NCBI GenBank assembly: GCA_964486625.1
Contig: CAZANW010000002.1
Coordinates: 1-52,743 of the forward strand
DNA: 52,743 bases
Reading direction: 5' to 3'
Source: an uncultured Halobacteria archaeon
Lineage (GTDB): Archaea > Halobacteriota > Syntropharchaeia > JACQPP01
Under the pieces are notes generated by a model that was not told where the DNA came from, made no database searches, and saw only the letters and a list, made by a program, of their open reading frames with translations. Shown piece by piece: positions 20,370-48,809 of the stretch (within the stretch, counting starts at the first letter, position 1; every line of letters begins with the position of its first letter). A program made the position numbers and the translations under genes.

Positions 20370-21044
20370 TCATGGGGACTTGGCAATCCGAGATTTCGTG
20401 TAGGCGGCCAGGCCCCCGGTCCAGAGGATGGTCTCCAGGAGCGGGTCCTCCAGGGGGCCGAAGGACCACCGGCCCCGGGGGACGAAAAGCACGGTGCGCT
20501 CCTTCCCCGGGTCCCGGAAGCGAAGAGCGAGATTTCCGCCTTCGGCCCGGACTTCGAGGAACCGCTCGGGGGTCACCAACGGCCCCTCGGGCCGGAAGAC
20601 CTCCACGCTCCCGCCCTTCCCCTCCCCGTAGCGGACGCGGGCTAGGTCGCCCGTCTCGGCCCGCACCTCGGGCTGGGTGACGGGGGGCAGGCCGTTGTAG
20701 ATGGAGTTGGTCCGGAAGATGCGGGCGAAGGAGTTCGCCACCACGCAGGAGACCCCGAGTCCCTTGAGGGCCCGCGGGGCGTGCTCCCGGGAGGAGCCCT
20801 TGCCGAAGTTGCGCCCCTCGACGAGGATGGCGGAGGTCCCGGTCTCGGAGACCCACTTCCGGACCTCGGGGACGAAGTTCGGGTGGACCAGTTGGAAGGC
20901 GTGCTGGGCCAGGAACGCAGGGTCGAAAGAGGTGATGTAGGCCGCGGGGATGATTTGGTCGGTGTCGATGTCGTCGAGCCCCTTGTCGGCCTGCTTGTGG
21001 GGGAGGGACCAGACGCGGCCGATGAACTCGTGGGTCTTGGACAT
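20370..21044 (-). CDS. Aconitase-family dehydratase small subunit (3-isopropylmalate/homoaconitate dehydratase, LeuD-like)
   Basis: It has DTDQIIP and GRNFGKGSSREHAP motifs. Confidence 0.85.
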   Translation of the reverse strand: MSKTHEFIGRVWSLPHKQADKGLDDIDTDQIIPAAYITSFDPAFLAQHAFQLVHPNFVPEVRKWVSETGTSAILVEGRNFGKGSSREHAPRALKGLGVSCVVANSFARIFRTNSIYNGLPPVTQPEVRAETGDLARVRYGEGKGGSVEVFRPEGPLVTPERFLEVRAEGGNLALRFRDPGKERTVLFVPRGRWSFGPLEDPLLETILWTGGLAAYTKSRIAKSP

Positions 21045-21074
21045 CGCTTACGCTTGCACCTTCCCAACCAGACC

Positions 21075-21494
21075 CCGCACGCGCACGCTCGGCGGCACAC
21101 GCATCCGCAGGAGGCGTGTGTTTGCGACGAAGCCGCAAGGCCCCGGCCTCGCTCGCTGCGCTCGCTCGGCCCAGCGCCGCTCCTCGCGCCTCGCCTTCGA
21201 CTCGGCGCTCGCCTTCCGACTGCGCCGAAAGCGAGCGCCCGTGAACGCAAGTTCACGGTCGCTCGTCGCAAATTGGCGCTGGGGGCCGCCTCGCTTGTGC
21301 GCGTGCTCACACAATGCACAGGATGACGTCTCATACGACTGTTGCAAGAGCAGGGGTCGCGGCGCGACGGCGCCCGTAGGCGGCATTTGTGTGGTGTGCG
21401 CGAGCCCGAGCGAGTGCACACCACCGCCGCCGACGAGGCGCGAGCGACCGAAGGGAGCGAGCGCCGAGTAGGGCGCCGAGCGCGCGGCCCGACC
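21075..21494. repeat. GC-rich structured mosaic repeat, locus A (module 1 at 21075-21287; inverted module 2 at 21341-21494)
   Basis: It fills the 485-bp gap between the leuC-like and leuD-like genes. Segment 21163-21287 is the exact reverse complement of 23165-23289. Module 2 is about 80% identical, by eye, to the reverse complement of 35920-36057. Confidence 0.85.
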
Positions 21495-21529
21495 AATCAT
21501 CAAAAAAGGCGATGTAGCGGGGTGGGATG

Positions 21530-23071
21530 TCACGGCCCATACAACTCCCACCCGAATTTCTGCCCCGGGCTCCGCTTGAACCGCTTGTACTTTGCCAGCG
21601 CCCTCTTCAGGTCTTTCTCCGGCACGATATCCGCAGGGTTCACGATGACTCCGGCGACCGCCGACGCGGCGACGACCGCCGGGCTCGCCAGGAAAATCCA
21701 CGCTTCGGGGTGGCCCATGCGGTTCGGGAAATTTCGATTCGAGGCGGAGATGACCACGTCGTCCGCCTGCACCACCTCGCCCTTGGCGTCATACTTCTTC
21801 GCGTAGGCCTCGCTGGTGAAGAATGAACCCAGGCACCAGGAGCAGGAAGAGACGTCGGCCACGCGGGCCCCCGCCTTGCGGAACTTCTCCAGGACGCCCA
21901 TCTTTTCCGCCTGCCGCAGGACCACCTCGCTCGCCGGCACCACCTTCATCAGGACGCCGGGGGCGACCTTGCGGCCCGCCACAATCTCGGCCGCAATCAC
22001 CAAGTCCTCCAACCGCGCGTTGGTGCAGGAGCCGAGGAACGCCTTGGTGATTTCGGTGCCCGCGACCTTCGATACGGGCGCGTAGTTATCAGGGGAGTAG
22101 GGCGCCGCGACCAGGGGTTCCAGGGCGGAGAGGTCGAGTTTGATTCTCTTTTCATACTTCGCGCCGGGGTCCGCAAGCGCGGCCCTCCAAGGGGCCCGGG
22201 CCCGCCTCGACTTCTTGCCTCCGAGACCGTTGACCATGACACGGTCGGTCTTCGGGTCGCGGACCACCTCCTCGTTGACGAACCGTTCCACGGCCGCGTC
22301 GGGGGGGAAGACGCCCGCAGTCGCCTCCATTTCTGCCGCCATGTTGGCCATGGTGATGCGGGCTTCGAGGGACATGGCGGAGACGCCATCGCCGGAATAC
22401 TCGACGGCAGCGTCGCGCCAGACACCCTCCTTGTAGTGCTTCCCGATAAGGTGAATCACCGCGTCCTTGGAGGAGACGTAGGGCCGGAACTTCCCGGTCA
22501 ACTCGACGCTCACCGGCCTCGGGACCTTGAACGGCAGCCGCCCCGAGAGAATCATCATCCCGACTTCGGTCGAGCCCACCCCGGCCGCGAAGGCCCCGAG
22601 GGCGCCGTAGGACGGGGTGTGCGAGTCGGCCCAGAGAATCAGGTCGCCGGGCCGCACGTGCCCCTCCTCGGGGAGGACGATGTGGCAAATCCCCCCGATT
22701 CCGATGTCATAGACGTGGGGCAGGCAGTATTTGCGCGCGTACTCCCGCACGCGGTTGGCCTGGGCCGAGCGGGGGAAGATGTCCGCCGCGGGGCCGAGGA
22801 AGTGCTCCAAAGCGACGACGACGCGGTGCTTGTTCTTGTCAACGAGTTTCAGGAGTTTCTCCTCGCCGAGGTCGGCGAAGTCGGGCCCCTCGATGGCTGC
22901 AAAGGCGCCGTCGGCGGTGACGTCGGAGCCCCCGGTGACGTCCACCTCGAACTCGTGCCACGTCCCCGGCTTCAGGACCGCGAGGTCCTTGTCGGGGGCG
23001 GCTTGGTAGGGGGTTTTGCCGTTCTCGACCAAGTGCCGAGCGAGGATTTTTTGGGTGACGGTGAGCGCCAT
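21530..23071 (-). CDS. Aconitase-family dehydratase large subunit (LeuC/HacA-like)
   Basis: It has ADSHT, GSCTNARLEDL and SNRNFPNRMG motifs. ATG 23071 (MALTVTQKILARH) is preferred; the rest of the 755-aa track ORF reads through a repeat and a pseudogene. Confidence 0.85.
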   Translation of the reverse strand: MALTVTQKILARHLVENGKTPYQAAPDKDLAVLKPGTWHEFEVDVTGGSDVTADGAFAAIEGPDFADLGEEKLLKLVDKNKHRVVVALEHFLGPAADIFPRSAQANRVREYARKYCLPHVYDIGIGGICHIVLPEEGHVRPGDLILWADSHTPSYGALGAFAAGVGSTEVGMMILSGRLPFKVPRPVSVELTGKFRPYVSSKDAVIHLIGKHYKEGVWRDAAVEYSGDGVSAMSLEARITMANMAAEMEATAGVFPPDAAVERFVNEEVVRDPKTDRVMVNGLGGKKSRRARAPWRAALADPGAKYEKRIKLDLSALEPLVAAPYSPDNYAPVSKVAGTEITKAFLGSCTNARLEDLVIAAEIVAGRKVAPGVLMKVVPASEVVLRQAEKMGVLEKFRKAGARVADVSSCSWCLGSFFTSEAYAKKYDAKGEVVQADDVVISASNRNFPNRMGHPEAWIFLASPAVVAASAVAGVIVNPADIVPEKDLKRALAKYKRFKRSPGQKFGWELYGP

Positions 23072-23131
23072 CGGGTGGGCTCGAGCGGTTTGGGGAATTA
23101 AACTTGCTGGGGCGATACACGAAAAGGACGT

Positions 23132-23336
23132 GTTGCAATAGCAAGGGCCGCAGCTCGACGGCGGGGCCCCCAGCGCCAATTTGCGACGAGCGACCGTGAA
23201 CTTGCGTTCACGGGCGCTCGCTTTCGGCGCAGTCGGAAGGCGAGCGCCGAGTCGAAGGCGAGGCGCGAGGAGCGGCGCTGGGCCGAGCGTGAACGAAGTG
23301 AGCGCGAGGGCGAGGCCGCCGAGCGTGCGCGTGCGG
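23132..23336. repeat. GC-rich structured mosaic repeat, locus B (inverted relative to locus A)
   Basis: Segment 23165-23289 is a perfect inverted copy of 21163-21287. The outer block CCGCCGAGCGTGCGCGTGCGG (23316-23336) mirrors 21075-21095. The GTTGCAATAGCAAGGGCCGCAGC end matches the ends of loci C and D. Confidence 0.85.
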
Positions 23337-24015
23337 CGAGAAACCCCAAACCGCCATTGCGCGGTTCCATGAAGGACCGAGTCAACCCGCACTCGAAACT
23401 CCGCAATCCACCAGTAGGGAGAATACCTCGCGAACCCCGGCCACCGCGGGACGGAGCGCCCCATCGCCCCGTCCACGACGTCGAACGCGGTCTGCCGGAC
23501 CGGCCCCACGGGAGGCCGTACATCTCCCGGACTTCGTCGGGCAGGAGACCCGCCGTCACCAGTTTGTTGAACTCCGCCAGCGGGCGCGGGGTGAGCGGTG
23601 GATTGAGGATGGTCCAGGAGAGTTCGCGTGCCACTTCGCCGACGCCGAGCCCGTCGCGGAGCATGCGGCAGTAGTAGGCTTCGAAGTCGCGGGGGTTCGC
23701 GGGCATCGCCTTCGGCGTGGCACCGAGGAGTCCAGCGAGCGCGCACCACTCGCGGTAGTAGCGCCCCCTCTCGTGCGGCGCCAAGGGCGCGACCCAACGC
23801 TCGTAGAGGCTCACCGAGGTCTCGTAGAGGGTCGCCATGACCCAGGTTAGGAGCGCAGGGTCGTGGGCGTCGTAGGGCGCGCCGCGCGGGACGGGGCCCG
23901 CCTTTTCGCGGGTCTTTCCGTGGACCCGGTCGTGGACCCCGACGATGTGCGCCACGGCCCCCTGAGCCTGGCGCGGGGTGCCGAAGACAATCTTCTGCAT
24001 CGTGTCGCCGGTGGT

Positions 24016-24051
24016 GTAAACTACCCGCCCCTTCAGGGGCGGGTAGTTTAC
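24016..24051. terminator. Perfect 16-bp stem / 4-nt loop hairpin at the end of the inserted ACAD fragment
   Basis: GTAAACTACCCGCCCC TTCA GGGGCGGGTAGTTTAC was read directly. Any terminator function is inferred only from its position after the fragment's stop. Confidence 0.35.
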
Positions 24052-24318
24052 TTCAACTGCTCCCTCGAATACCCCAGAACCCTCCGCGCCACAATCAGCG
24101 TGTTGATTTGCCCCGTCCCCTCGAAGATGTCCACAATCTTCGCGTCGCGCACCAAGCGCTCGAACCGGTCGCGGACGCGCACCCCGAGCGGCCCCGCGAG
24201 CGCCGCGCACCTCTGGGGAATCGAGGCCGCCGCGCGCCCCGCCACCACCTTCGCCATGGAGGCCTCCGCCGCCATCGGCAGCCCCCGGTCGGCCATCCAC
24301 GCCGCCCGCCCTGTAAAG
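24048..24318 (-). pseudogene. Acyl-CoA dehydrogenase C-terminal fragment inserted inside the DUF2236 gene
   Basis: RAAWMADRGLPMAAEASMAKVVAGRAAASIPQRC...RDRFERLVRDAKIVDIFEGTGQINTLIVARRVLGY is a typical ACAD C-terminal helical domain. It differs from the intact ACAD at 34581-35783. It ends in a stop codon embedded in the 24016-24051 hairpin. Confidence 0.7.
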
Positions 24319-24544
24319 GCGGACGAAGGGGGCGAGGAGGTCCTTGCGGAACCCGCTGGGTCGGCCACGCCGGCGGCCACCTTCGGGTGGGCCAACTGCA
24401 AAAGGAGAGCCCGGGGGCCGCCGAAGACGAGGAAGTTTTCGCGGGCGATGCGCCACATCATCGACTGGGGGCCGAACGGAGGAGCGACGTTCCCCATCAC
24501 CCGGACCCTTGGCAGGGACGTTCCAAGAGTTTTTTGAATCGAGT

Positions 24545-38465: not shown

Positions 38466-39731
38466 ATGGGCTCGAAATCGAGGGAAGTATTTATACCCCC
38501 CTCAGACCTGGAGCCCGAGATACGACGTCTGGTGGGCGACGAAAACCTCTCCCCGGGTCTCCGGTCGGAGATGGCACGGTACGGCGCCCACCTGAAGGAC
38601 CGGGGGCTCTCCCTCGGGCACCGGACCCGGGAGGTCATGCGGACCCGCGAGTTCCTCCTCCGGTGGAAGCAGCCCGGGCCCCCGGGCCTGGAGGAGGTGA
38701 CCCGCTTCCTCGGCCGCCTCCGGTCGGACGGTCACAAGGAGAAGACCGTCGCCCACTACGCGGGGGCCATCAAGAGGTTCTACACGTGGCGCAACGACGG
38801 GGAGCCGCCCCCGGGGCTCCGCCGGCTGTCGACCTCCCCGCGGGAGAAGAGGAAGATCCGGCCCTTCTGGACCTGGGAGGAGGTGGAGCGGATGCTGGCC
38901 GCCACCGATAGGCCCCAGCACCGGGCCCTCATCATGTGCCTGATGGAGTCGGGGGCCCGGGCGGAGGAGTTCCTCAAGTTGAACGTCGGCGACCTCGTGT
39001 TCGCCCCGGACAGCGGCTACGTGAAGGTCAAGCTGCCGACCGGGAAGACCGGCGAGTACACCCAGCTCTGGATCAAGTCGGTGCCCTATCTCCTGACTTG
39101 GTTTAAGTTCCATCCCGGCCCGCGGAGGGCCGACCGGAGCCTGGAGCCGACGGCCCCGTTGTGGGTCGGGGCCACGCGCCGCAGATACGGCCAGCGATTG
39201 ACCTACCCCGGCCTCTATCACATTCTGCAGGACATCGGGACTGCCGTGGAGGTTCCTGCGGAGAAGAGGAGTCCACACGCAGCCAGAAGGGGAAACGCCA
39301 CTTGGCTGCTCTCCCAGGGTTGGAGCCGAGAAAAAACAAACATGTGGCAAGGTCGCGAAAAAAGCAGCAAATTAATCGATGTCTATGCCCAAGACTTCGA
39401 CTTGTCACAGGAGATGCTGCGAACTGGGGGGCTCGAACCCGCTGCCGCCCAAGCACAGACGGACGAGTTCCGGCCGGTGAAGTGCCAATGGTGCGGCCAT
39501 TACAACGAGGCCCAGCCGCCGCCCAAGAGGTGCGCGGAGTGCGGGAAGCCGCTGACCATCGAGGCAGTGAAGGAGATGGAGGATAAAACCCGGCAGGCCA
39601 CGGACTTCGCCCAACTGGTCGGGGGCGCAATCACGGACCTGTTCCAGTCGCGGCCTGAATTCGAGGCCGCCCTCAAGGAAGCCTTGGAGCGGCGCATGAA
39701 GGCCAAAGCCGGGGATCCGAAGGCCGCCTGA
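38466..39731 (+). CDS. Tyrosine recombinase/integrase with C-terminal zinc ribbon
   Basis: It has an N-terminal SAM-like core-binding region, ESGARAEE (Arg I), HAARRGNATWL (H-x-x-R), a catalytic Tyr region (LIDVYAQ) and CQWCGH...CAECGK. Confidence 0.85.
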   Translation: MGSKSREVFIPPSDLEPEIRRLVGDENLSPGLRSEMARYGAHLKDRGLSLGHRTREVMRTREFLLRWKQPGPPGLEEVTRFLGRLRSDGHKEKTVAHYAGAIKRFYTWRNDGEPPPGLRRLSTSPREKRKIRPFWTWEEVERMLAATDRPQHRALIMCLMESGARAEEFLKLNVGDLVFAPDSGYVKVKLPTGKTGEYTQLWIKSVPYLLTWFKFHPGPRRADRSLEPTAPLWVGATRRRYGQRLTYPGLYHILQDIGTAVEVPAEKRSPHAARRGNATWLLSQGWSREKTNMWQGREKSSKLIDVYAQDFDLSQEMLRTGGLEPAAAQAQTDEFRPVKCQWCGHYNEAQPPPKRCAECGKPLTIEAVKEMEDKTRQATDFAQLVGGAITDLFQSRPEFEAALKEALERRMKAKAGDPKAA

Positions 39732-46490: not shown

Positions 46491-46592
46491 CCAAAACCCC
46501 GTTTTCGGCCCCCCGAACTGCCCCCGCGCCCCTCTCCCGCTCCGGTTTTTCCGGACCTTTCCGAACTGGCCGGGAGGCTTACTCCACTCCAA
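46491..46592 (+). repeat. ~100-bp direct repeat, left copy (ends in degenerate att core)
   Basis: CCAAAACCCCGTTTTCGGCCCCCCGAACTGCCCCCGCGCCCCTCTCCCGCTCCGGTTTTTCCGGACCTTTCCGAACTGGCCGGGAGGCTTACTCCACTCC is nearly identical to 48020-48123. Confidence 0.85.
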
Positions 46593-46693
46593 TACCGCAG
46601 GCACGACCGGAGCCACCAAGCCGCTGCCCAGCCTATCAGGGTTTCAGGTAGCCGAGGGAAAACTTTACGATTGGCCGAGGCCGAGGGTTTCGA

Positions 46694-47974
46694 ATGGCCG
46701 AACCCAAACCTTTCGATTGGACGACCCCGGGCGCGGCCCGTCTCTACCCCCGCCACGCTGCGGCGCGCCTCGTGGAGGCACTGTCGGACTCGCCCGTGGT
46801 GCTGGTTCACGGCCCCCGGCAGTGCGGCAAGACGACGCTGGCGCGTATGGTGGGAGAGCCGCGGGGCTTCGCCTACTTCAACTTCGACGACGACGTGACT
46901 CGCGCCGCCGCCGCCCAGGATCCCGCCGGCTTCGTGGCCGACCTGCCGCGACGGGTCGTCCTGGACGAGGTGCAGCGGGTTCCGCAACTGTTCGGCGCCC
47001 TCAAGACGGCGGTGGACCGGCACCGCTCGCCGGGCCGGTTCATCCTGACCGGCTCGACCCACGTGCTGCTGCTCCCCCGGCTCGCCGACTCGCTGGCCGG
47101 GCGTATGGAGATCCTGCAGCTTCATCCCCTGGCCCAATGCGAGATCGAGCGGCGCTCCCCGCGTTTCCTGGACCTGCTCTTCGGCCGCGGCTTCAAGACC
47201 CGGACCTCGGAGCGGCTCGGCCACCAACTGGCCGGGCGGATCGTGGCTGGCGGCTACCCGGCGGCCCTCGCGCGCCCCGGCGAGCGCCGCCGCGCGGCGT
47301 GGTACCGGGATTACGTCGAGGCGCTCGTCCAGCGCGACGTGCGCGGCCTCTCCCGGGTCGGCGCGCTGGAGGCCCTGCCGCGCCTGCTCGCCCTCGCCGC
47401 CTCGCAGACGGCGCGCCTGCTGAACGTGGCGGAGCTCGCGGCCCCCTTCCAGCTCAGCCGGCCGACCGTCCGCGACTACGTCACGCTGCTGGAGCGCGTC
47501 TTCCTCCTGCAGAGGCTGCCCCCCTGGCACACCAGCCGGCTGAAGAGGCTCGTGAGGACGCCCAAGCTGCACCTCAGCGACACCGGCGTGGCGGCGGCCC
47601 TCCTCGGCGTGGAGGCGAGGGGTCTGGCGGCCGACCGGCCCCTGCTCGGGCAGCTCCTTGAGACGTTCGTGTTCCAGGAACTGCGGAGGCAGGCGAGTTG
47701 GCGCGACGAGGCCACGGCATTCTTCCACTTCCGGGACAAGGACGGCGCCGAGGTGGACATCGTGGTCGAGCGGGGCGCAGGGGAAGTGGCGGGAATCGAG
47801 GTGAAGGCCTCCGCCACCGTCGCTCCGGCGGACTTCCGCGGCCTGCGCAAGCTCAGGGAGGCTGCGGGCAGGCGCTTCGCCGCGGGCGTGGTGCTCTACG
47901 ACGGGGAGGCGAGCGCGACCTTCGGCGGCGGCCTCTATGCCGTGCCGGTCCGCGCCCTGTGGGAACCTCTGTGA
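46694..47974 (+). CDS. AAA+ ATPase of the AAA_14/DUF4143 family
   Basis: It has Walker A GPRQCGKTT, Walker B VVLDEVQ and a C-terminal DUF4143-like restriction-endonuclease-fold region (VDIVVERGAGEVAGIEVK). Confidence 0.85.
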   Translation: MAEPKPFDWTTPGAARLYPRHAAARLVEALSDSPVVLVHGPRQCGKTTLARMVGEPRGFAYFNFDDDVTRAAAAQDPAGFVADLPRRVVLDEVQRVPQLFGALKTAVDRHRSPGRFILTGSTHVLLLPRLADSLAGRMEILQLHPLAQCEIERRSPRFLDLLFGRGFKTRTSERLGHQLAGRIVAGGYPAALARPGERRRAAWYRDYVEALVQRDVRGLSRVGALEALPRLLALAASQTARLLNVAELAAPFQLSRPTVRDYVTLLERVFLLQRLPPWHTSRLKRLVRTPKLHLSDTGVAAALLGVEARGLAADRPLLGQLLETFVFQELRRQASWRDEATAFFHFRDKDGAEVDIVVERGAGEVAGIEVKASATVAPADFRGLRKLREAAGRRFAAGVVLYDGEASATFGGGLYAVPVRALWEPL

Positions 47975-48019
47975 GCCGGCCGCGTATGTTCTGGGCGACG
48001 TGGGAGATCTGCTGACTGC

Positions 48020-48123
48020 CCAAAAACCCCGTTTTCGGCCCCCCGAACTGCCCCCGCGCCCCTCTCCCGCTCCGGTTTTTCCGGACCTTTCCGAACCGGC
48101 CGGGAGGCTTACTCTCCCCACTC
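48020..48123 (+). repeat. ~100-bp direct repeat, right copy (ends in intact att core)
   Basis: It matches 46491-46592 apart from one A insertion, one T/C change and the 4-nt TCCC present here. Confidence 0.85.
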
Positions 48124-48640: not shown

Positions 48641-48645
48641 GTCCT

Positions 48646-48809
48646 ACGAAGTCCGGGAGATGCATGGCCTCCCGTGGGGGCCGGTCCGGCAGACCGCGTT
48701 CGACGTCGTGGACGGGGCGATGGGGCGCTCCGTCCCGCGGTGGCCGGGGTTCGCGAGGTATTCTCCCTACGGGATGGTGGCGGAGTTGCGGGCCCTGCTG
48801 CTCGGGTAG
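48646..48809 (+). pseudogene. Orphan 3' fragment of a DUF2236 gene
   Basis: YEVREMHGLPWGPVRQTAFDVVDGAMGRSVPRWPGFARYSPYGMVAELRALLLG* is about 135 nt almost identical to the reverse complement of about 23400-23535. It has no upstream coding partner and abuts the integrase fragment. Confidence 0.7.

Follow-up and report, generated by a model that had tools for sequence, protein, structure and literature searches.

A perfect inverted repeat around a leuC-like gene of an uncultured archaeon, formed by two members of a modular foldback repeat family

Introduction

The DNA considered here, referred to as the window, is the 52,743-nt stretch of contig CAZANW010000002.1 (positions 1 to 52,743, forward strand) in assembly GCA_964486625.1 of an uncultured Halobacteria archaeon (Halobacteriota; Syntropharchaeia; JACQPP01). 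The assembly, G000, is a 2.01-Mb metagenome-assembled genome (MAG) in 148 contigs, with 69% GC and a completeness of 87%, in which the window is contig C2. Within the window, a leuC-like gene for the large subunit of an aconitase-family enzyme is bracketed by two perfect 125-nt inverted repeats, an arrangement that a first-pass annotation had put forward as a possible invertible segment. The question addressed here is where the two arms come from and whether they form a switch. They are probably neighbouring copies of a genus-specific, non-coding and modular family of foldback repeats, left in place as a by-product of the proliferation and recombination of that family rather than as a regulatory inversion device.

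The leuC-like locus

The features of the locus are as follows.

20370-21044, minus strand: leuD-like small subunit, 224 aa (TIGR02087, 110 bits), outside the bracket and adjoining the arm L side
21163-21287, plus strand: arm L, the perfect core, part of the full element W_L, which occupies the leuC-leuD spacer
21502-21507, minus strand: T6 tract, 23-28 nt past the leuC stop and just before W_L, a possible archaeal terminator
21530-23071, minus strand: leuC-like gene, 513 aa, of the aconitase/3-isopropylmalate-dehydratase large-subunit family (NF001614, 392 bits against a cut-off of 385)
23097-23103, minus strand: TATA-like GTTTAAT, a putative promoter element 25 nt upstream of the leuC ATG, inside the bracket between arm R and the start codon
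23165-23289, minus strand: arm R, the reverse complement of arm L, within the half element W_R upstream of the putative leuC promoter

The genome holds four paralogous pairs of large and small subunits of the aconitase family, the window pair included. The other three (C65:6147-7702, C1:18095-19813 and C5:1584-3053) show 33-37% identity to the window LeuC, the nearest relatives of which outside the genus are bacterial, with 36-40% identity.

The spacing between the TATA-like box and the start codon fits a leaderless leuC transcript, and in the sole close relative that was found, a hot-spring MAG of the same genus (G001), the counterpart of the box, GGTTTAATCC, lies 24 nt upstream of the leuC ATG. 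No TATA-like box was seen in the 485-nt spacer upstream of the leuD-like gene, in which a GGAAGGTG motif is found at 21057-21064, 13-20 nt ahead of that gene. The position of the box matters for what an inversion would do. As the first-pass annotation had it, leuC would be turned against leuD; the exchange of promoter context that was also predicted for leuC is not to be expected, because the conserved box sits inside the bracket and would flip with the gene, so that leuC would keep its promoter. From these signals, inversion would be predicted to alter the coupling of leuD to leuC alone. A role for the two arms as an RNA duplex within a single transcript enclosing leuC was considered and rejected as unlikely, since the box lies downstream of arm R, which should consequently not be part of the leuC mRNA.

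The inverted repeat and its support in raw data

A repeat search and a script both find arm L to be the exact reverse complement of arm R, with all 125 nt complementary (100%), just as the first-pass annotation had stated. The arms are 1877 nt apart and enclose the whole of the leuC-like coding sequence together with 93 nt of its 5' region. Chance is no issue for a match of this length, and the next-best family members reach only 95% identity to the arms over 73 nt or 92% over 131 nt. The divergence of the adjoining sequence through indels and different modules, also described at first pass, is confirmed. Moving outward from the core, a gapped comparison gives a patch of 28 nt in which 9 differences occur, two 2-nt gaps among them, and which is followed by a stretch of 42 nt found in the left copy alone and then by a second perfect block of 22 nt. 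Moving inward, the similarity ends abruptly and the two copies have nothing in common.

Independent evidence comes from Logan contigs, assembled at k=31, for the four runs in which the locus is found, all of one mine-drainage metagenome sample, the source of the MAG. A contig of exactly these 125 nt is present and unbranched in two of the runs, with a depth of 15.5 in run X1 as against about 6 for the unique flanks (about 2.5x), and of 7.1 in run X2 as against 3.7-8.4 for the flanks (about 1x). For both copies the transitions into the flanking sequence are visible as contigs or as loose ends, and no variant contig was found across the module H region (described below), even at a minimum share of 1%. 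Nor does any contig link the flanks across the 125-nt repeat, the reported joints being other copies of the family, such as those at the C5 and C92 loci.

The assembly itself requires some care. An overlap of exactly 55 nt with another contig is found at 92 of its 296 contig ends, from which a final assembly k of 55 can be deduced. Since this is shorter than the 125-nt arms, the graph alone cannot orient the segment that they enclose, and the assembler must have used read pairs. That a single path was taken through the pair of arms is a weak argument against nearly equal shares of the two orientations. The MAG also contains strain-level redundancy, in the form of a 10.2-kb stretch that is duplicated at 99.5% identity (C34:439-10650 and C56:56-10267).

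A family of modular foldback elements

The arms are parts of two larger elements, one full and one half, whose components are listed here.

21075-21491, plus strand: W_L, full-length foldback element with, in order from its outer end, a 22-nt terminus, a 42-nt hairpin module, A, H, B, C and the far terminus GCCGAGCGCGCGGCCCG
21075-21096, plus strand: outer 22-nt terminus of W_L, perfectly complementary to 23315-23336
21097-21138, plus strand: 42-nt hairpin module, found in W_L and in copies on C92, C76, C16 (two) and C81, and absent from W_R
21206-21259, plus strand: module H, 54 nt, with two hairpins, GGCGCTCGC...GCGAGCGCC and CGTGAAC-GCAA-GTTCACG; in W_R at 23193-23246
21337-21491, plus strand: module C, about 150 nt, the most abundant unit of the family, with conserved structure and covariation
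23132-23336, minus strand: W_R, half element with a 22-nt terminus, module A of a different subtype, H, the start of B and then, inverted, a piece from the beginning of module C
23315-23336, minus strand: outer 22-nt terminus of W_R, the perfect partner of 21075-21096

W_L was delimited by alignment with five other full copies, by profile hits on both strands, by a scan for termini and by its fold. A family profile built from five full copies was used in an nhmmer search of the MAG, giving 53 hits that merge into 33 loci of 120-420 nt, all of them non-coding and dispersed, mostly within tens of nt of gene ends, with many at the ends of contigs. Used as a DNA query, W_L has 37 matches in its own genome and 27 in G001, and a further 29 genomes from that taxonomic family and class gave no match. 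Rfam has no family that matches between 20000 and 25000.

A full element of this family measures about 300-330 nt; it begins with CCGCTCGCGCACGCTCGGCGGCC and finishes with GCCGAGCGCGCGGCCCG, and the ends GCTCGCGCACGCTCGGCGGC and GCCGAGCGCGCGGCCCG pair with one another as imperfect terminal inverted repeats. Full copies are matched by the profile on both strands, and their predicted folds, with energies from -152 to -242 kcal/mol (W_L being the lowest at -242), form one long branched hairpin in which the ends are paired. The elements can therefore be regarded as foldback structures. For the spacer folds the z-scores are -3.5 and -4.1. W_L exceeds the standard full element by two extra units, the 42-nt hairpin and the 54-nt module H.

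Fundamental to the family is its modularity, whereby A, H, B, C and the 42-nt unit are found in varied combinations, orders and orientations, and H and C also occur as solo units. Wherever else in the genome a left and a right terminus were paired by the termini scan, they are 250-420 nt apart, and no longer, autonomous element was found by that scan. Evidence for constraint is provided by module C, for which 18 copies from the two genomes were aligned. In this alignment 98.5% of the cells are paired and 9 of the 40 pairs show changes on both sides, with a covariation score of 0.190 as against 0.087 for shuffled alignments (0 of 500 reach it) and no more than 0.037 for controls with slid partners. 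The pairing and the covariation indicate that the hairpins are under constraint, at the level of either DNA or RNA. Solo H-like units are found in G001, where one double-hairpin unit directly follows a stop codon. The second hairpin of module H (window 21237-21254) carries a GNRA loop, which is GCAA in the window and GCGA in the solo unit of G001 that directly follows a stop codon (L032 546-563), and its loop sequence hints at a possible RNA-level role on one strand.

The two arms as mosaics

Three characters are common to W_L and W_R and are found in no other copy in the genome, namely module H, an adjacent cgac variant and a private base in the 22-nt terminus, which is A in these two elements and T in all of the others (CCGCACGCG as against CCGCTCGCG). 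Over 125 + 22 nt the two elements are thus each other's closest relatives, closer than either is to any of the other 31 loci. Elsewhere they follow different family members. For instance, within the 28-nt patch the W_R version is almost identical to the copy on C36, and the W_L version to the copies on C41, C78 and C76, while the inner continuations of the two elements likewise go with different members. It is this combination of a mosaic build with closest relationship that points to a recent exchange of sequence between W_L and W_R. Judged on sequence, the pattern is reasonably what would be expected of a recent non-reciprocal exchange, either gene conversion or template switching among family members.

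Near-perfect identity is not peculiar to this neighbouring pair. Within the family, the dispersed copies on C41 and C78 are 98.6% identical over 284 nt, and those on C7 and C92 are 98.2% identical over 163 nt. A second and unrelated repeat family of 195 nt, also rich in hairpins, is present at C22:21244-21438, C28:5338-5532 and C55:6036-6230, with 100% identity at two loci and 99.5% at the third. Many contigs end inside this 195-nt repeat, and a 28-nt piece of it (window 24024-24051) forms a palindrome at 24007-24060.

These comparisons qualify what had been concluded at first pass, that the perfect core implies recent gene conversion or ongoing recombination. Recent exchange is upheld by the closest relationship and the mosaic build, whereas the identity as such, being matched elsewhere in the genome, loses its special meaning. 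The first-pass annotation had added that many equally identical copies across the genome, together with reads of a single orientation only, would make the pair simply a recently amplified repeat. The near-identical dispersed copies come close to this, and the membership of the arms in a family of 33 loci counts against a switch.

Comparison with a related genome and neighbouring genes

In G001 leuC is followed by leuD in the same direction, with 86% and 77% nucleotide identity, respectively, to the window genes. No repeats flank the gene and no copy of the family lies within about 4 kb of leuC. Because G001 keeps the leuC-leuD order without repeats, the bracket appears to be a recent and lineage-specific accident, and the comparison of leuC orientation between relatives, which the first-pass annotation had suggested, gives nothing that points to flipping. 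Additional strains were also sought with LeuC in a metagenome collection, where none was found and nothing exceeded 40% identity.

Where the window has an element in the leuC-leuD spacer, G001 (L001 5580-6228, on G001:C9) has a gene for a PIN-domain toxin (PF01850, E=1e-12) together with one for a small PrlF/AbrB-like antitoxin (a weak hit). The junction between leuC and leuD has thus been struck twice independently, by a repeat element here and by a toxin-antitoxin pair in the sister species.

On the far side of arm R lies a further gene that has been affected by rearrangement.

23387-24497, minus strand: broken MpaB/DUF2236-like gene, the 3' end of which runs into W_R, with an open frame that continues through arm R

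Its Pfam positions 1-49 and 46-221 are in different frames, and between them is a C-terminal fragment of an acyl-CoA dehydrogenase (approximately 24075-24311). The G001 counterpart is also followed by an element of the family, in a short version of 140 nt (L034 17957-18096; G001:C9:26957-27096), and there the gene and its element are inverted and lie 5.5 kb from leuC. A simple inversion was rejected as the explanation for this difference. The rearrangement must have been complex, because the intervening DNA of G001 has no counterpart beside the gene in the window. Rearrangements have therefore occurred beside these elements, although the elements are not proven to be their cause. A separate inverted repeat, 23394-23540 and 48643-48790, with 94.5% identity over copies 25 kb apart, covers the 3' end of the MpaB-like gene with its first copy and lies just upstream of a gene for TFIIB with its second. 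A PGF-CTERM protein is also encoded in the window and, together with the TFIIB gene, marks the organism as archaeal.

Recombinases, transposases and mobility

An inversion switch of the classical kind would be accompanied by a dedicated recombinase. The genome, within the limits of an 87% complete MAG, has no hit to the serine resolvase/invertase family PF00239. It does contain six tyrosine recombinases (PF00589), of which the nearest, at 38466-39731, is 15 kb from the arms. Further on from this gene a DUF4143/AAA_14 ATPase is found between 92-nt direct repeats of 99% identity (46491-48123), and this region as a whole looks like an integrated element that is unrelated to the leuC repeats. Another recombinase, 700 nt from the element copy on C41, looks to be of the XerA type. 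A tie between that integrase and the element was rejected on account of its likeness to XerA and because the near-identical C78 element has no such neighbour. The Y1 transposases of the IS200/RAYT (REP-associated tyrosine transposase) type, PF01797, give no hits in the genome, and the same search does give hits in control genomes. A single TnpB-like open reading frame is present, on the 1.7-kb contig C142.

The mobility of the family can nonetheless be inferred from its copy number and from its near-identical dispersed copies. The flanks of nine full elements were followed in G001, where the coding parts have 79-89% identity and the intergenic parts either cannot be aligned or hold, in the corresponding position, an element that is diverged or shorter. 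The intergenic DNA of the two species is thus too diverged for a target duplication or an empty site to be defined.

Origin of the bracket and alternative explanations

The course of events that is considered probable can be set out as follows. A full element would have come to fill the leuC-leuD spacer and a half element, in the opposite orientation, to lie just upstream of the leuC promoter. The identity over 125 nt and at the 22-nt ends would then result from a recent transfer between the copies, through either local copying or non-reciprocal gene conversion, and the remaining parts of each copy would be derived from, or converted by, other members of the family. Like any perfect inverted repeat of 125 nt, the arms could occasionally serve homologous recombination. 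Such an inversion would turn leuC together with its own promoter and part it from leuD, and is more likely to be harmful than useful.

Several observations weigh against this account. No cognate transposase has been found in the genome (there is no DDE_Tnp_1, with 0 hits to PF01609), in a MAG that is 87% complete and whose contigs break at repeats. No consistent target-site duplication was seen at the ends of six full copies and none at 21075 and 23336, nor could a clean empty site be defined in G001 for the flanks of the nine full elements. The collapsing of bubbles during assembly could have erased one or two true differences between the arms, and the depth of the 125-nt contig, raised in X1, is level with the flanks in X2. 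Finally, all four junctions between arms and flanks are alike in either orientation, so that the k=31 contigs confirm two copies and say nothing about flipping.

This last point bears upon the strongest of the alternatives, in which homologous recombination between the arms flips the 2-kb leuC segment appreciably, whether or not this has a regulatory use, such that both orientations coexist and exchange keeps the arms identical in the manner of plastid inverted-repeat isomers. The arms are perfect, inverted and close together, the mosaic build shows that members of the family recombine, and MITEs (miniature inverted-repeat transposable elements) figure in reviews as recombination hotspots (PMC10969869); moreover, the MpaB-like gene and its element are inverted relative to leuC between the two species, and so rearrangements do arise beside elements. 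However, nothing shows a second orientation directly, the assembled one is that of G001 and hence ancestral, and the single path of the k=55 assembler through both arms adds a weak argument against a near-equal mixture. Inversion would also sever leuD, with no TATA-like box visible in its spacer, from leuC. A flipping population is accordingly unlikely, if not negligibly so. It becomes more doubtful still in an extended form, where the arms are a working recombination substrate whose flipping keeps them identical and switches leuD through its coupling to leuC, with the family as an archaeal counterpart of the bacterial interspersed mosaic elements (BIMEs) that recombines and spreads without RAYT or a recognisable transposase. 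As doubtful as this is an effect of assembly, by which the 1.9-kb segment has been misoriented or two slightly different copies have been collapsed into identity or, less likely, module H is really present in one arm only. The k that is shorter than the repeat (as seen from the 55-nt overlaps at 92 of 296 contig ends), the low coverage of about 6-8x per run, the depth of only about 1x the flanks in X2 and the strain-level redundancy (C34/C56, 99.5% over 10 kb) would all allow for such an effect, yet each of the four flanks has its junction sequence represented among the independent k=31 contigs, the contig of 125 nt shows no branching in the two runs that have it and reaches about 2.5x the flank depth in X1, no variant contig crosses the H region, and the assembled orientation gives the leuC-leuD order of G001.

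What of the possibility that the bracket is itself a unit, either of transposition or of control? The 2262 nt from 21075 to 23336 could be viewed as a composite MITE-flanked unit with identical 22-nt inverted termini, a gene-capture transposon carrying leuC. Its outer termini are perfect and have a private base in common, this is the only place in the genome with two left termini facing each other at a kilobase distance, and bacteria provide documented cases in which MITE-flanked segments are mobilised (PMC10969869). Yet leuC adjoins leuD as it does in G001 and is therefore at its ancestral position, no target-site duplication is visible at the ends of the unit, no transposase with these ends was found in the 87% complete MAG, and there is no second copy of this leuC, the paralogues being at most 37% identical. 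Such a transposon is very improbable. The programmed switch, a recombinase-driven inverton controlling the expression of leuC and leuD by phase variation, is slightly more improbable again and ranks last. All that speaks for it is that a gene has inverted repeats on both sides. It has to contend with the absence of a serine invertase from the genome, with a nearest tyrosine recombinase that is 15 kb away beside other mobile-element genes, with arms of 125 nt that are members of a 33-locus family rather than short dedicated sites, with a promoter-like box inside the segment that moves with the gene, and with the absence of the arrangement from the only congener, G001. The suggestion of an invertible segment with which the analysis of this locus began finds no support and is, in the sense of a programmed device, unlikely to be correct, and an origin of the arms through proliferation and recombination within the repeat family is preferred.

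Comparison with known systems

Where does this repeat family stand in relation to those already described? With MITEs and foldback elements such as Sulfolobus SM1-SM4, the Correia elements of Neisseria and the enterobacterial RU/ERIC repeats, it has in common that the copies are short (150-420 nt), non-coding, numerous, mostly intergenic and close to gene ends, that their ends are inverted repeats of each other and each element folds back as a whole, that some dispersed copies are near-identical and that they are substrates of recombination. The archaeal family differs in that a target-site duplication could not be defined and a partner transposase whose ends match was not found in the genome, in its strong modularity, which extends to units standing on their own, and in being limited to one genus of an uncultured high-GC archaeon. 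The repetitive extragenic palindromic sequences (REPs) and BIMEs of Enterobacteria and Pseudomonas are similar as mosaics of GC-rich palindromic units in varied combination and orientation, placed inside operons and after stop codons, with hairpins conserved through compensatory changes. Here, however, the host is archaeal, the genome has no RAYT (PF01797) and the units are longer than the 20-40 nt of REPs; the GTAG/CGTC head of REPs was not noticed in the termini by eye, no scan having been run for it. The palindromic elements of Rickettsia are likewise structured palindromic repeats but are able to land inside genes too, whereas W_L and W_R are extragenic.

The likeness to fimS, hin and the invertons of Bacteroides is that inverted repeats flank a segment of DNA. 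In those systems the inverted repeats are short (about 9-30 bp), a dedicated recombinase is encoded next to them, and it is the promoter that changes direction while the genes stay in place. At the leuC locus, by contrast, the arms are 125-nt parts of a repeat that is dispersed through the genome, no invertase was found there, and an inversion would carry the promoter of leuC along with the gene. Inversions through homologous recombination, as between copies of insertion sequences or rRNA operons and in the plastid inverted-repeat isomers, provide a mechanism that could act on a perfect pair of 125 nt, although no second orientation has been observed and the repeat is much shorter than in the classic cases.

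Implications

For the annotation of such genomes the locus carries a caution. In a MAG assembled at k=55, every exact repeat longer than 55 nt that lies inside a contig has been resolved by read pairs only, and for inverted repeats beyond this length a short-read graph establishes neither the orientation of the enclosed segment nor the perfection of the repeat.

For the biology of the organism, a gene that ends up between copies of a dispersed repeat is nothing unusual where repeats proliferate, and the arrangement matters little on its own. What the locus does illustrate cleanly is that structured repeats of a little-known genus of uncultured archaea have recently exchanged sequence and become mosaics. 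Given that a toxin-antitoxin pair has independently entered the same leuC-leuD junction in the sister species, the locus also adds to the evidence that elements insert into the spacers of operons. The repeat family as a whole is of more interest than the pair of arms.

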